Part shown: one piece after another, positions 1 through 6,000 of the stretch | How the letters are laid out: each line of letters opens with the position of its first letter | Position numbering within the stretch: position 1 is the first letter of the stretch | Program-made: the position numbers | Assembly (NCBI GenBank): GCA_945859975.1 | Contig: CAMAPH010000061.1 | Location: 1-12,620 of the forward strand | DNA: 12,620 bases | Direction: 5' to 3' | Source of the DNA: Chthonomonas calidirosea | Lineage (GTDB): Bacteria > Armatimonadota > Fimbriimonadia > Fimbriimonadales > Fimbriimonadaceae

Positions 1-3000
1 TGGGCCGAGTAAACGACCACGGCGCCGTTTGGAATGTCCGAAATGTCCTCGACGAAAACCACGCCTTGAGATTCAAAACTTCGAACGACATGCTCGTTGT
101 GGACAATGGCGTGACGAACGTACACCGGCGCCCCGTGAATTTTCAGGGCAAGGCTCACAACTTCAATGGCGTACGAAACTCCGGCGCAGAAGCCTCGTGG
201 CGCGGCAAGAACGATTCGGTCCACGTCCTATTCTACGTTCTCCGAGGCGTCGGCACCACGGACCACCACGAGGCGGCATCCGACCTCGGCGACAATCACG
301 GGCGCAGGCGGCAGTGGTTTTCCGACCGTTATGCCTACAGACTCGACCTTCAAAAATTCCTGAAGAATCGCGTCCGCAATCACTTTGGCGAGCCGCTCCA
401 CGGTTCGGTACTGGTGGGTCTGGACAATCTCCGTCACTCGCTTCGCGATCGCGCCGTAATCCACCGTGCCGTGGATGTCGTCAGATTCACATGCCGAACA
501 ATCTGGGACTTGCAGTTCGAGCGAAACCCGGTATCGATGGCCGATTTCTTGCTCGGCGTCCGGCACGCCGTGGTACCCGTAAGCCTCCAGTCCGGTGATG
601 AAGACGGTCCCAAATGGTCCGGTTTGTTGTATTGCCATGCTATAATTTCAGCACAACCGAACAGCGACCAATGACAGGTGGCTCATGCCGCCTTTTTTTG
701 TTCGTAAAGTTTAGTAAAAACGGAGGCACGGCGATGGATATTCTGCAACAACTTAAAGTAATCGCGTCTGAGCGCGACTTACCAGTCGAAGAGCTTCAGC
801 TTGATTTGGAAGAGGCACTGGCAGCCGCGTACAAGCAGTTTATTGGGGCACGCGAAGGCGAAATCAAGGTGAGCATCACTTTGAACCCGCTGAGCGCAAA
901 CGTCGGAAAGGAAGTTGTCGGGCTTGTTACCGACCCGCGACTGCAAATTTCGCTTGAGGATGCTCGGAAGAAGGATCCGAAGATCGAAGTCGGCGAACTC
1001 TTGTTCGTTCAAGTCGACCCGCTTCAATTCGGCCGTATCGCTGCGCAAACGACCAAGCAAGTTCTCCAGCAGAAACTGCGAGATTCGGAGCGAAATCGAA
1101 TCACGACGATCTTCACCGAAAAGCTGGGCGACATCGTCACCGGCACGGTTTCGCGACGAGAGGCTGACCGAGTGATCATTCAGGTCAACAAGGTTGAGGC
1201 AGAGATGCCACGCCGAGAACAGGTGCCAACCGAGCCGTACCGATTGAACGACCGCTTGAAGGTTTTCGTTCTGAAAGTCGACGAGATGATGCGCGGACGA
1301 ATTCGCGTTGTCGTCAGCCGAACCCACCCGATCCTCCTCCGAAAGCTTCTTGAGCTTGAAGTCCCAGAAATCGAGCAGGGAATCGTTGTGATCAAGAGCG
1401 TTGCCCGTGAGCCCGGACAGCGAAGCAAGATCGCCGTTCTCAGCACCGATGAGCGAATCGACCCGATCGGCGCTTGCATCGGACCTCGCGGCGCACGCGT
1501 TCAGGCCATCGTGGATGAGCTTTACGACGAAAAGATCGACGTGATTCTCTACAGCGAAGACCCGAAGAAGTTCATCATCGACGCTCTTTCACCCGCAAAG
1601 GTGAACTCGATCAAGATCAACGACATCGAGAAGAGCGCCCTGGTCATCGTGCCAGATAACCAACTCTCCCTTGCCATTGGTAAGGGCGGACAAAACGTTC
1701 GACTTGCTGCTCGACTCACCGAGTGGAAGATCGACATTCGAAGCGAAAGCCAGTCCTCCGGGGCCAAGGCCTAGCCTCTCTAAGAACTTAGCCCCGGGGG
1801 ACACCTACTGCCCCGGGGGTATCATGTAGTGAGAAAGTCGTCCGTATGCCTGAGCCCATAAGAATGTGCCTCGGTTGTCGGAGGCGACGTCCGAAATCTG
1901 AGTTGCTTAGGTGGGGAGCCCTCTCCGAAGCTGCGGCAAGTCACGATGGAAGAGGGGCGTATGCCTGTCCAGATGCCCAGTGTATCGAACGGGCGACAAG
2001 TAAGGGACGCGCGAATCATGCGCTTCGGAAGCAGCTTTCCGAAGGTGAGCTTCGCGAGATACGAGATAACCTTTTATGCAGACTCAGGTAAAGAAAGCCA
2101 CCGGAATGACCCATCAGATCGCAGAACTCGCCAAAGAATTTGAAGTACGCCCCGGCGTAGTGTTTGGAGTTTTGCTTGATCTTGAGGTCGAGCACGATGG
2201 ACAATCCTTCGAGGCGGACGACGACACCGTCGCGCTCATCACAGAATCACTAGGCGAGCTCATCGGCAGTACCGAGCTCGTTCTGAAGCCAAACTCCACC
2301 CCACGCGACATGGCCTTTGCGCTGGGCGTGCCACAGCCAGAAATTCAGAAGACCTTGGTCACCAAGCTGAAGGTCATGGCAACACTTACGACCGTTCTTA
2401 AGGACGATGTGATCGAAAAGCTCGCCGGCCTCTACAACGTCACGGCACGAGTTGGCGATGCCCCTAAGCCGAAGCCAGTAGTGGCTCCGAAGAAGCAGAA
2501 CGGCGGTGCCCAGCCTCGACCACCCGTGGTCACCATCATGGGCCACGTTGACCATGGCAAGACATCGCTTCTCGACTACATCCGAAAAGCGAACGTTGCC
2601 GGAAAAGAGCACGGTGGCATTACTCAGCACATCGGTGCTTACCAAGTTGAGCTTCCCGAAGGCGTCATCACCTTCCTGGACACTCCAGGCCACGCTGCTT
2701 TCACCAACATGCGGGCTCGCGGAGCTAAGGTTACGGACATCGCGATCCTCGTGGTTGCGGCCGATGACGGCATCATGCCGCAGACGATCGAAGCGATTCA
2801 GCACATCCAAGCGGCAAACGTTCCGATGATTGTTGCCGTTAATAAGATCGACAAGATTGACGCGAACCCAGACCGAGTTCTTACCCAGCTTCCGGAATAC
2901 AACGTCATTCCAGAAGCCTATGGTGGACAGGTCATCACCTCGCCCGTGAGTGCACTCACCGGTGAAGGCGTTCCCGCTCTTCTCGAATTGATCCTGCTTC

Positions 3001-6000
3001 AAGCCGAGGTCATGGAGCTGAAAGCCGACCCCAAGGCCGAACTCAAGGGAGTCGTCGTCGAAGCAAAGCTCGAAAAGGGCCGCGGACCGGTCGCTACCAT
3101 GCTTGTGCAGGAAGGCACCCTCAAAACGGGTGACAGCGTCGTTGTCGGAACCACCTTTGGCCGAATCAAAGCCATGACCGACTATAAGGGCGGTCGCTTG
3201 ACCGAAGCCGGTCCGAGCACCCCGGTTGAAATCCTTGGCCTCAGCGAAGTACCTCACGCTGGTGACACCGTCATTGCGATGGCGGATGAGCGAAGCGCTC
3301 GCGAACTAGCCGAAAGCCGCGCCATGGATGAGCGGGCGAAGACCATCTTCCAGAAGTCGCGAGGAATTACCCTCTCCGACCTCCGAAAGCTCCAGCAGCA
3401 GGAAGACTTTAAGGCGCTAAACCTGATCATCAAGGCCGACGTTCAAGGTTCGGTTGAAGCCGTCAAGGGAATGCTTGAGAAGGTCCGAAACGAGGAAGTC
3501 GAAACCCACGTTATCCTCAGCGGCGTTGGCCAGGTCACAAAGGCAGACGTCGATCTTGCCGCCGCATCGGGCAGCATCATCGTCGGCTTCAACGTCAAAC
3601 CGGAAGGCGAAGCGAAGCGAGAAGCCGAGAAGCGACACGTCGAAATTCGAACGTACACGATCATTTACGAACTGATCGAAGACATCGAAGCGGCGGCAAA
3701 GGGCATGCTCGAACCGAAGTTCGAAGAGCAGTACCTTGGCTTGGCCGAAGTTCGACTCCGAATGCAGTTCTCGAGGAAGGGCGTCATTGCTGGCTGCTAC
3801 ATCACGGACGGCAAGATCACCCGAAACGCCAAGTGCCGCGTCAAGCGCGGACGAGAAATCGTCCACACGGGCAGCGTTGCTTCGCTCCGTCACTTCAAGG
3901 ACGACGTCCGAGAAGTCACGATGGGTATGGAATGCGGAATCACCTTCAACGACTTTGAAGAGTTCGTCGAAGGCGACATTATCGAAGCGTTCGAGATGAT
4001 CCAGGTCAACGCCTGATCCCCTCGCTTACATTCGGAAGAGACTGAAACCCGGTTGTTGGAGCGGTGCATTTGCCGCCGCTTCAATGCCCAAAGCGAGCAC
4101 TCGTCTCGTGTCGACGGGATCGATGATCCCGTCATCCCAAAGTCGCGCGGTGGAGTAATAGCAACTTGACTCCTCCGCGTACTTGTCCAGGATTGGCTGC
4201 TTAAACTCCGCTTGTTCTTCGGGCAAAAGCGTCCCACCCTTCGCCGCGAGCTGATCCATCTTTACGGTGAGCAGAACATTGGCGGCTTGTTCGCCACCCA
4301 TAACGCTAATCCGAGCGTTCGGCCACATCCACATCATTCGTGGCTGGAAGGCTCTTCCGCACATGCCGTAGTTTCCAGCACCGTAGCTGCCGCCGACGAC
4401 GATCGTGAACTTCGGTACGGACGCAGTACTGACTGCTGTGACAAGCTTTGCGCCGTTCTTCGCGATGCCCTCATTCTCATACTTACGCCCGACCATGAAG
4501 CCGGTGATGTTCTGCACAAAGACCAGGGGTACGCCTCGCTGGTTGCAGAGCTCAATGAAATGCGCGCCTTTGAGCGACGACTCGGAGAACAGAATTCCAT
4601 CGTTCGCCAAAATCCCGACTAGGTGTCCGTAGACCCGGGCAAATCCGCAGATGAGGGTCTTGCCGTAGTTCGCCTTGAACTCCTGGAACCGGCTGCCATC
4701 CACGATGCGAGCAAGAACCGCGCGCATGTTCATTGGAACCTTCGAGTCGCTTGGAACAAGGGAATACAGCTCCTTCGGATCGAACGCCGGGTCTTCTGGC
4801 GTAGCCGCAGGTTGGGCACCTGGCTTCTTTGCTGTCCCAAGAGATTCGACGATGTTACGGACGATTTGCAGGGCGTGGGAGTCATCCTCGGCCAGATGGT
4901 CGGCAACGCCGGAAAGTCGAGTGTGCACATCCGCGCCGCCAAGATCCTCAGCGGTGACTTCCTCACCCGTGGCCGCCTTGACGAGCGGAGGTCCACCGAG
5001 GAAGATGGTGCCCTGTCCGCGCACGATGACCGTCTCGTCGCTCATGGCCGGGACGTACGCGCCGCCCGCCGTGCATGAACCCATGACGCTCGCAATTTGC
5101 GGAATCCCGGCTGCCGAGAGACGTGCTTGGTTGTAGAAAATTCGGCCAAAGTGGTCTCGATCCGGAAATACTTCGGCCTGCAAGGGCAAGAAAGCTCCGC
5201 CGGAATCCACCAAGTAAACGCAGGGCAGATGGTTCTCCAGCGCGACCTCTTGGGCTCGAAGATGCTTTTTGACCGTGATGGGGAAGTAGGTGCCGCCCTT
5301 TACGGTGGCGTCGTTTGCAACGACCATGACCTCACGACCGTGCACCCGGGTGATTCCGGTCACGACTCCGGCACTTGGCGCATCGCCTTTGTACATGCCA
5401 TCTGCGGCCAAGGTTGAGAGTTCGAGGAACGGTGCTCCCGGATCGGCCAGGGCTTCTACTCGTTCTCGGGCGAGAAGCTTTCCTCGGCCCTTGTGCTTTG
5501 CGACGAGATCGGAGCCTCCGCCAAGCATTGCCTGCGCGGTCTTGGCTCGAAACTCGGTCAGCACCGCCTCCATCGCTTCGCGATTCCGCTGGAATTCGGG
5601 CTGGTTGAGATCAACGGAATGGTTCAATTGCTCCATCGCACTTCGATTCTGAAACACCTAGCCCTCTGTTCGCTGTTTAAGGGACCGTTAAGGCTTGTCG
5701 TTGGCGAGTAGCATCTGGAAATGAAAAGAGGTCTTCTCTTCGTTGGGCTTGCACTTGCGGTCGGTGCGACAGCGATGGTTACGCGGCAGGATGTCCGCGG
5801 GCTGCTCGTTACAGGTAAGTGGATCAACACCGATTCTGGCCTTGCCCATGAGAAGGTTGGAAGCTATCCGGTCAACATGGCCAAGTCTCCCGACGGCCGA
5901 TTTGTCGCGGTAACAAACTCGGGCTATCGCCAGCAGATTTCGATTCTGGATTCGACGACCGGAAAGTTGGTGAGCAAGCTTGAGTTCAACGCCTCAACCC

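Follow-up and report, generated by a model that had tools for sequence, protein, structure and literature searches.

Stepwise loss of 30S assembly and hibernation factors in Fimbriimonadaceae, with a bS18 tail as candidate compensation for RbfA

Introduction

In E. coli, bS18 holds the 3′ end of 16S rRNA together with RbfA, and A1534–C1535 stack between RbfA Phe78 and bS18 Arg43 (passages of PMC8177701). According to passages of Amikura et al. 2025 (PMC12641178), rbfA is kept by 98.3% of non-CPR and 46.9% of CPR genomes and its loss is treated as a CPR trait; rimP loss is wider in CPR, where 0 genomes have rimP but lack rbfA. Our literature search found published descriptions of RbfA loss for CPR only, in agreement with the first-pass annotation of the DNA studied here. 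CPR are hard to grow, which has left their route to mature 30S subunits in the absence of RbfA unsettled. Here we analyse a window (the whole stretch of DNA under study, 12,620 nucleotides) from Fimbriimonadaceae, and show that this lineage lost RbfA, RimP, RsgA, HPF and cold-shock-domain (CSD) proteins stepwise.

Results

The window lies in a genome of 3.12 Mb (101 contigs, completeness 95.8%) and carries a nusA–ylxR–infB operon (Table 1). The divergent folB stands beside nusA in the usual place of rimP, and GGAGG at 722–726 precedes the nusA ATG. Only 95 bases lie 5′ of nusA and only 9 lie 3′ of infB, which leaves no room for rimP before the operon or for DUF503 or rbfA after it; the first-pass annotation had likewise described an operon with neither rimP before nor rbfA after it.

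Table 1 Features of the nusA–ylxR–infB locus in the window
Feature	Position	Strand	Evidence
folB, dihydroneopterin aldolase	228..638	-	ORF call; PF02152, E 2.6e-30
Divergent spacer folB/nusA, 95 bases	639..733	.	Sequence
nusA	734..1774	+	NusA_N and KH_5 domains
ylxR (DUF448)	1846..2091	+	PF04296, E 2.7e-14
infB, IF2 of 646 aa, last gene of the operon	2076..4016	+	IF-2 and GTP_EFTU domains
Gap infB/carboxyl transferase gene, 9 bases	4017..4025	.	Sequence
Carboxyl transferase gene, convergent to infB	4026..5657	-	PF01039, E 1.9e-152

Profile searches of the window's genome returned no match to RbfA, RimP_N, TIGR00157, HPF (both domains) or CSD. The earlier claim had carried the worry that diverged copies might escape such models. 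Profiles trained on the lineage, run over 71,554 six-frame stretches of this genome, gave nothing significant: the best E was 1.2 for RbfA with filters off, 1.8 for RimP, 1.7 for CSD and 0.79 for HPF, and a profile built from 15 order-level HPFs reached 2.3. The RbfA family (PF02033) likewise gave no match at the curated cut-off, and the top matches of the RsgA profile were Era, Der and MnmE-like GTPases, none of them RsgA. A single-contig twin genome, with a NusA 100% identical to that in the window, also lacks RbfA, RimP, RsgA, HPF and cold-shock proteins in profile searches of its one contig, so that the reported absence of all five stands in both genomes.

To describe the distribution of RbfA we use family labels that are our own (f1, f2, f46, f47 and f48, not those of the first-pass annotation), of which f1 is Fimbriimonadaceae by its homolog labels. 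RbfA exceeded the curated cut-off (PF02033) in 1 of 96 f1 and 0 of 17 f2 genomes, and an order-trained profile matched 2 of 174 f1 and 0 of 19 f2 genomes compared with 28 of 30 in the order's remaining families; the earlier family tallies thus hold in larger samples. On sequence comparison, both f1 matches are foreign DNA. One (genome G385) is a copy missing its start on a contig of 3.4 kb, with 49% identity to an alphaproteobacterial RbfA and no more than 39% to Armatimonadota; the other (G457) shares its contig with a TruB only 38% identical to that of the window's genome, in a bin with 4% contamination. Tree support (SH-aLRT) is 100 for f1+f2, 99.7 with f46 added and 99.5 with f47, and because f1 and f2 are sisters the data require one RbfA loss, not two. 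In most relatives rbfA and DUF503 had earlier moved away from infB as a pair: four RbfA-bearing genomes (G301, G306, G313 and G323) have rbfA after DUF503, and 5/5 of the RbfA-less genomes read that keep DUF503 have unrelated genes there. No conserved gene fills the old rbfA slot either after infB (14 f1/f2 loci with infB in view) or after DUF503 (5 RbfA-less loci). We conclude that rbfA was deleted once, on the f1+f2 branch. The claim that RbfA was lost in two whole families of free-living 2–6 Mb bacteria stands for the absence itself and for size (RbfA-less genomes are listed at 1.5–6.5 Mb, mostly 2–6.5 Mb), but 'free-living' is documented for the family's cultured type species (passages of PMC4072686) and not for the window's genome.

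The remaining factors map to different branches from RbfA and from one another. RimP is missing from 49/49 genomes of the order and 24/31 other genomes of the phylum in profile searches, and was lost first, before the order arose. HPF persists in 24 of 34 RbfA-less relatives; its loss came later, in the window's genus plus a few others. RsgA has been gained or lost patchily over the lineage: it is much commoner in f1 than the previous tally of 1 of 5 implied (12 of 24 genomes, in a long form with an extra N-terminal region), and co-loss with RbfA can be rejected, as 14/34 RbfA-less relatives keep RsgA and 10/10 RbfA-bearing f48 genomes lack it. Cold-shock proteins, also missing from RbfA-bearing f46, were lost at the f1+f2+f46 node, one node before RbfA, whereas RRM/glycine-rich proteins stayed. 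Across 80 genomes none lacks both families (RRM in 37/37 CSD-less genomes, CSD in 22/22 RRM-less genomes), and the window's genome encodes a stand-alone RRM_1 domain with a glycine-rich tail (G000:C18:50071-50256, E 2.6e-11). RRM occurs in 20 of 31 phylum genomes outside the order and is therefore ancestral in the phylum, not gained for the purpose. Among 14 controls only the cyanobacterial and Bacteroides ones matched RRM, and the Synechococcus control had no CSD match. RRM proteins would thus be candidates to replace CspA as RNA chaperones.

On the branch that lost rbfA, rpsR moved out of the rpsF–ssb operon, the zinc cysteines of bS18 disappeared and an Arg-rich tail was added at its C-terminus. 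This tail measures 12–65 aa in 33/33 RbfA-less genomes, while bS18 ends within 3–6 residues in 46/46 RbfA-bearing genomes. Each genome has one bS18 match, the tailed zinc-free form, whose core contains no Cys in 30 of the 33 and a single Cys in 3. Tail position 4 is Glu/Asp in 33/33, positions 6–22 hold 2–7 Arg/Lys, and the equivalent of Arg43 is kept in most; past its first residues the tail is of low complexity with a fivefold variation in length, and alone it is predicted to be unfolded (pLDDT 51–62). Three RbfA-bearing genomes (G012, G015 and G054) have a zinc-free bS18 with no tail, so zinc loss alone means nothing. The highest mean identity of zinc-free bS18, 57%, is to sequences within the phylum, and its best PDB matches are what we take to be Bacillota-like; no bacterial bS18 chain among the best 60 PDB matches has a comparable long tail. 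In chloroplasts, which have retained an RbfA homolog, bS18 also matches the profile as far as the tail region, a point against the tail as a substitute for RbfA.

Other potential compensations were considered and set aside. Nucleotides 921–923 and 1532–1534 of 16S rRNA and the anti-SD are unchanged in 19/19 RbfA-less 16S genes, which excludes loss of the hALT trap or of the anti-SD as an explanation. Helix 6 is shorter on the right branch (26–30 nt in 18/19 RbfA-less genes versus 34–57 nt in 19/19 others), but it is distant from the RbfA site, and a short helix 6 is common in RbfA-bearing bacteria. At the f1+f2+f46 node the 16S gene became detached from 23S, the central-pseudoknot pair 19–916 became A–U and the helix-45 pair 1511–1524 became G–U; f1 genomes have one or two 16S copies. 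S5 suppressor sites 87, 91 and 127 are A, T and S in the window's genome, bulkier than in E. coli, and the same states in RbfA-bearing relatives rule them out as a specific compensation. Era, KsgA, RimM, YbeY, IF3, bS21, bS6, RNase III, DeaD and PNPase are kept (RimM and KsgA in 5/5 genomes, Era, Der and RNase III in the window's genome); loss of bS21 or bS6, and loss of RNase III with unlinked rRNA genes, can therefore be dismissed. uS11 shows no striking change in 29 sequences and IF3 nothing obvious in 5. An SD of at most −4.4 kcal/mol precedes 79% of 112 f1 and 77% of 79 f2 ribosomal-operon starts, and the motif peaks 10–12 bases upstream genome-wide. With start codons placed by homology, mean SD energy is −7.1 in f1, −6.1 in f2, −7.2 in f46, −9.9 in f48 and −8.8 in others, a retained if somewhat weaker SD that argues against Bacteroidetes-like SD loss.

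Discussion

The distributions above show a stepwise loss, to which our preferred though tentative explanation adds compensation for RbfA by the bS18 tail. The 16S rRNA keeps the bases of the immature-helix trap that RbfA resolves; since these are intact, we infer that the 3′ end must be caught another way. A flexible basic bS18 tail would take over from RbfA in keeping the 3′ end on the platform, and the retained Era, KsgA, RimM, YbeY and IF3 would complete maturation. We put compensation forward as a plausible hypothesis only, because the match between bS18 and RbfA represents one evolutionary event, not 79. The tail could also follow from freed space or be neutral, other changes (helix 6) share its branch, and its placement at the 16S 3′ end is a candidate drawn from sequence. 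The stronger version, in which the Arg-rich tail captures the 3′ end, drives the h28 switch and makes RbfA dispensable in non-reduced bacteria, seems to us rather unlikely.

Since E. coli remains viable when rbfA is deleted, compensation may be unnecessary. Slow growers whose one or two 16S genes are unlinked may instead have tolerated the loss and accepted slower 30S maturation, with help from Era, IF3 and weakened helices; the tail would then be a bystander or consequence. We consider this possible but doubtful. The low 16S copy number of f1, the 19–916 and 1511–1524 changes and the bulkier S5 sites fit, although the S5 and 16S states are common to RbfA-bearing f46 (S5 also to other RbfA-bearing relatives) and E. 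coli itself has A19–U916. Passages of PMC4509935 report that rbfA is non-essential, its deletion slowing growth 2.5-fold at 26 °C, and that RimP, already gone here, is toxic when overexpressed in rbfA mutants; reduced symbionts nevertheless keep rbfA (passages of PMC12641178), which indicates that slow growth alone rarely permits its loss, and a bystander role leaves the tail in all 33 RbfA-less genomes to be accounted for. Replacement by a different protein, unrelated to RbfA and acquired on the f1+f2 branch, would agree with the intact hALT bases and with RsgA in 14/34 RbfA-less relatives, in long form in f1, but with both old slots devoid of a conserved gene in the 14 infB and 5 DUF503 loci we find it improbable.

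Two further readings fare worse. Read as one event, the losses listed in the first-pass annotation would be those of a module of 30S assembly, hibernation and cold-shock factors shed together. All five factors are absent from both the window's genome and its twin, and the CSD and RbfA losses lie on adjacent branches, but one panel and tree yield five different distributions: f46 has RbfA and no CSD, f48 has RbfA and neither RsgA nor RimP, and most of f1/f2 has HPF. The absences are real, yet they are not one joint loss, and a coordinated event is most improbable. Equally far-fetched is an RbfA present but too diverged for detection: its absence is a result of sequence profiles, but the same profile matches RbfA at 71 of 80 infB loci of distant bacteria and gives E values of 1e-36 or lower in sister families, an S5 control matched 80/80, and the unfiltered search found nothing significant while both synteny slots are empty.

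Several described systems help to place the stepwise losses and the tail. The loss of cold-shock proteins would add another example of the known CspA-to-RRM substitution: passages of a preprint (PMC13370968) describe CSD and RRM families as redundant in Bacteroides, and the protein found here resembles, in sequence, the RRM-1 cold-shock RNA-binding proteins of cyanobacteria and Bacteroides in its single RRM and glycine-rich tail. E. coli rbfA mutants with S5 suppressors (passages of Nord et al. 2015, PMC4509935) likewise live without RbfA and RimP, and the window genome's Ala at S5 position 87 equals suppressor G87A, with larger residues at 91 and 127; unlike the suppressors, however, these states date back to the ancestor of the phylum and occur in RbfA-bearing relatives too, and so are permissive at most. 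Sequestration of the anti-SD by bS21, bS18 and bS6 in Bacteroidetes (Jha et al., PMC7797042) provides a precedent for platform proteins holding the 16S 3′ end, with the lineage-specific C-terminal extension on bS6 there and on bS18 here. Bacteroides keeps RbfA in our control search, unlike f1/f2, and SD use persists here, which means that the anti-SD stays accessible. Zinc-free (C-minus) bS18 forms share the replaced zinc cysteines and a gene apart from rpsF, but here the form is the sole bS18 in the genome and has a long C-terminal tail; its tracking of RbfA absence is, as a hypothesis from sequence, the new lead of this work.

The nearest likeness is to CPR/Patescibacteria, in which rbfA and rimP are both absent and the loss of rimP is the wider (passages of PMC12641178). 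rbfA and rimP are flagged as bac120 markers, so the genomes described here systematically lack two markers. CPR differ in that rimM is nearly absent and era, der and rsmA are often absent (PMC12641178), whereas this lineage keeps Era, Der, RimM, KsgA and YbeY, and in their very small genomes, compared with mostly 2–6.5 Mb here. If compensation is true, an assembly factor's job would have been built into the ribosome itself, in a family with a cultured representative. Unlike CPR, this lineage offers a single late RbfA loss, RbfA-bearing sister families for comparison and a cultured free-living type species, which make the question testable with the bS18 tail as a named candidate.

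Absence of 30S assembly factors around nusA–infB

Library models for the 30S assembly factors RbfA, RimP and RsgA, the hibernation factor HPF and the cold-shock domain (CSD) gave 0 matches in the genome carrying the window (G000; 3.12 Mb, 101 contigs, 95.8% complete). Profiles built from relatives and run over its 71,554 six-frame stretches reached best E values of only 1.2 for RbfA (filters off), 1.8 for RimP, 1.7 for CSD, and 0.79 and 2.3 for HPF, and matches to the RsgA profile were rejected as other GTPases. E. coli RbfA and RimP queries found no match in G000; the same search recovered Era, RNase III, LepA, DeaD, PNPase, S15 and TruB. 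A close relative assembled as a single contig (G147), with NusA identical to that of the window, also lacks all five factors, so an incomplete assembly does not explain the absences. The control, ribosomal protein S5, was detected in 80/80 panel genomes. The five absences reported by the first-pass annotation are thus upheld by library models, lineage profiles and G147.

Among 80 infB loci from distant bacteria, rbfA lies within 3.5 kb in 71 and rimP in 67, several misses being loci cut off. In the window, gaps of 95 and 9 bases flank nusA–ylxR–infB.

Features of the window, and the bS18 gene elsewhere in G000
Feature	Position	Strand or orientation	Context
folB		divergent	upstream of nusA
nusA	734–1774		operon with ylxR and infB
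ylxR	1846–2091		nusA operon
infB	2076–4016		nusA operon
carboxyl transferase gene		convergent	downstream of infB
beta-propeller phosphoesterase, 849 aa	within 5721–9833	+	
adenylate/guanylate cyclase-domain protein, 492 aa	within 5721–9833	+	
tRNA-Pro	9840–9916		after cyclase-domain gene
23S_rRNA_IVP four-helix-bundle gene	11746–12126	−	between groES and groEL
bS18 gene	C4:135845–136270		

A single loss of RbfA in two families

RbfA scored above the cut-off in 265 of 301 genomes of a phylum sample, including 0/32 from the window's family, f1, and 0/2 from family f2. We take f1 to be Fimbriimonadaceae (Armatimonadota) because named homologues of the G000 bS18 are labelled Fimbriimonas sp., Fimbriimonadaceae or Armatimonadetes bacterium. 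A profile trained on the order was run on all 223 of its genomes with a completeness of 70% or more; it matched 2/174 in f1, 0/19 in f2, 3/3 in f46, 1/1 in f47 and 24/26 in f48 (f2 tallies probably include the unpublished genome G324, on which no conclusion depends). Both f1 matches look foreign and were rejected as retained copies; their contigs (L047/L408, G385:C88; L407, G457:C134) are likely chimeric or contaminant. The loss therefore spans two whole families, as first proposed. In family f20, RbfA matches fall inside open frames of 446–483 aa, possibly fusions, in four genomes (G185:C76:8044, G227:C38:34213, G122:C21:55835 and G080:C58:15799).

A tree of 11 proteins (1,753 columns, 41 genomes; fast search, no bootstrap) resolved ((((f1,f2),f46),f47),f48) with SH-aLRT values of 100, 99.7, 99.5 and 100. 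Because f1 and f2 are sisters, RbfA was lost once, and synteny agrees. G309 keeps the ancestral order infB–DUF503–rbfA (the middle frame is presumed to be DUF503); rbfA stands apart from infB in the f46 loci read and in most of those from f48, and follows DUF503 wherever this was checked. Of 8 RbfA-less genomes searched for DUF503, 5 retain it; the next gene is unrelated in every case, and no frame resembles RbfA below E 2. The gene 3′ of infB varies between loci. Other rearrangements include nusA without infB behind it in f46, G313 (f48) and G381 (f1) (L236–L238, L240, L226), and rbfA and infB head to head in one f48 genus. In f1 the S10–spc cluster is broken between rplE and rpsN (L100–L113; near 97000 on C5 of G000), and rplE and the S10 genes are absent from the 10 kb upstream of rpsE in 15/15 genomes.

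The other factors are distributed separately

Panels of 80 genomes gave each remaining factor its own distribution. RimP loss is old and phylum-wide (0/49 in the order, 7/31 elsewhere in the phylum). RsgA occurs in 12/24 f1 relatives, 2/10 f2, 1/3 f46 over the cut-off, 0/1 f47, 0/10 f48 and 21/31 elsewhere; without G324 the f2 counts are 0/9 for RimP and 1/9 for RsgA. In f1, RsgA is long, extended at its N-terminus by about 100 residues, and its neighbours vary (L432–L434, L070, L071); it is retained in genomes without any RbfA to release. HPF is missing from the window's genus (0/7, G000 included) and present in 15/18 other f1, 9/10 f2, 14/14 f46–f48 and 27/31 elsewhere.

CSD was found in 3/25 f1 (G000 among the 25), 0/10 f2, 0/3 f46, 11/11 f47–f48 and 29/31 elsewhere; of the f1 matches, one is plain CspA-like, one lies inside a long frame and one carries a stop. 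The RNA-binding domain RRM_1 occurs in 58/80 genomes. Absence of CSD is always paired with RRM: 37/37 CSD-less genomes have RRM and 22/22 RRM-less genomes have CSD, with 21 having both and none neither, counts that span kin, are not independent and carry no P value. The only f1 panel genome without RRM, G358, is the one with the plain CspA; it measures 1.5 Mb and scores 97% complete. RRM proteins, in G000 one RRM with a glycine-rich tail, probably stand in for cold-shock proteins. Among 14 controls only Synechococcus and Bacteroides have RRM, and Bacteroides RRM proteins and its sole cold-shock protein are reported as redundant cold systems (PMC13370968, preprint). The RsgA, HPF and cold-shock absences are ordinary or explained, and the losses stepwise and unlinked. 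Of the earlier interpretation, family-wide loss of RbfA in non-reduced bacteria stands; its coordination with the other four does not.

bS18 was remodelled on the RbfA-loss branch

In E. coli, RbfA holds 16S 1530–1536 in the exit channel and stops pairing in immature h28, with A1534–C1535 stacked between RbfA Phe78 and bS18 Arg43 (PMC8177701). The clearest change on the RbfA-loss branch is in bS18, remodelled on the same branch as the RbfA deletion. A match was found in 86 of 90 genomes and analysed in 79, after omission of seven near-duplicates (four RbfA-less, open frames 145–197 aa; three RbfA-bearing, 91–99 aa). All 33 RbfA-less proteins (22 f1, 11 f2) have 0–1 core cysteines and 12–65 residues beyond the last LP[FY], forming an Arg-rich tail with Glu or Asp at position 4 and 2–7 Arg/Lys at positions 6–22, whereas RbfA-bearing proteins end within 3–6 residues in 46/46 and keep 3–4 cysteines in 43. 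At the bS18 locus rpsF is present in 0/33 RbfA-less versus 12/12 f46/f48 genomes; it is retained without adjoining rpsR in 5/5 RbfA-less loci. In AlphaFold models the core is predicted with confidence and the tail as unfolded. The tail region is matched by none of the bacterial bS18 chains among the best 60 PDB sequences, but it is by chloroplast bS18.

The bases of hALT (921–923 paired with 1532–1534; PMC11182017) and the anti-Shine–Dalgarno are unaltered in 19/19 16S genes of RbfA-less genomes, and Era, KsgA, RimM, YbeY, IF3, bS21 and bS6 are retained (wherever several genomes were searched, five for each factor). In S5 the residues at codons 87, 91 and 127, sites of E. coli suppressors (PMC4509935), are larger, as they are in RbfA-bearing relatives (41 sequences), and 16S pairs 19–916 and 1511–1524 are weaker from the f1+f2+f46 node on. 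In f1, f2 and f46, 0/23 loci have a spacer tRNA or 23S motif after 16S (six read over 500 bases only); spacer tRNAs occur in 7/7 f48 and 7/9 other loci. The G000 23S lies on a different contig from its 16S; in the type species the rRNA genes are on record as split (PMC4072686). The weaker 16S pairs and the unlinked rRNA genes, like the S5 residues, preceded RbfA loss and may have been permissive. Helix 6 is also shorter from the RbfA-loss branch on. Among the 16S loci (L241–L280), C1508–G1527 closes helix 45 in f1 alone (13/13). Of the RbfA-less genomes only G316 (L256) has a long helix 6, of 51 nt; its 16S also shows a C19–U916 mismatch and possibly comes from a mixed assembly.

Explanations for the loss

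We tentatively propose that the bS18 tail may replace RbfA at the 16S 3′ end, which it would hold in place of the factor. The co-occurrence in all 33 proteins fits this reading; being a single event, the correlation is no proof of cause. A close rival, somewhat doubtful itself, is that the loss was merely tolerated, the tail being a bystander or consequence; the early S5 and 16S changes are consistent with it, the presence of the tail in all 33 less so. The following alternatives rank lower. Some other replacement seems improbable. A hidden RbfA, diverged past the models, is very unlikely given the lineage-trained searches and the empty position after DUF503. Equally hard to credit is one joint loss of a five-factor module: although all five are missing from G000 and G147, their distributions differ.

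Comparison with known systems

Outside CPR, rbfA is reported in 98.3% of genomes (46.9% within CPR), rimP in 92.3%, rsgA in 83.9% and hpf in 66.2% (PMC12641178). That set includes three Armatimonadota, F. ginsengisoli among them; its listed supplements hold no per-genome gene table, and its figures plot family representatives, so the gap could appear there uncommented. Among the papers listed, judged by title or abstract and from literature covering few subscription papers, we found nothing on rbfA loss in the Fimbriimonas/Armatimonad lineage, and no mention of this bS18 tail in literature listings. Loss of rbfA is known from CPR; its family-wide absence in non-reduced bacteria is a new form of this known loss, and one that can be put to the test through the bS18 tail. 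In Bacteroidetes, platform proteins lock the 16S 3′ end away (PMC7797042); f1 and f2 differ, as these RbfA-less families retain Shine–Dalgarno use.
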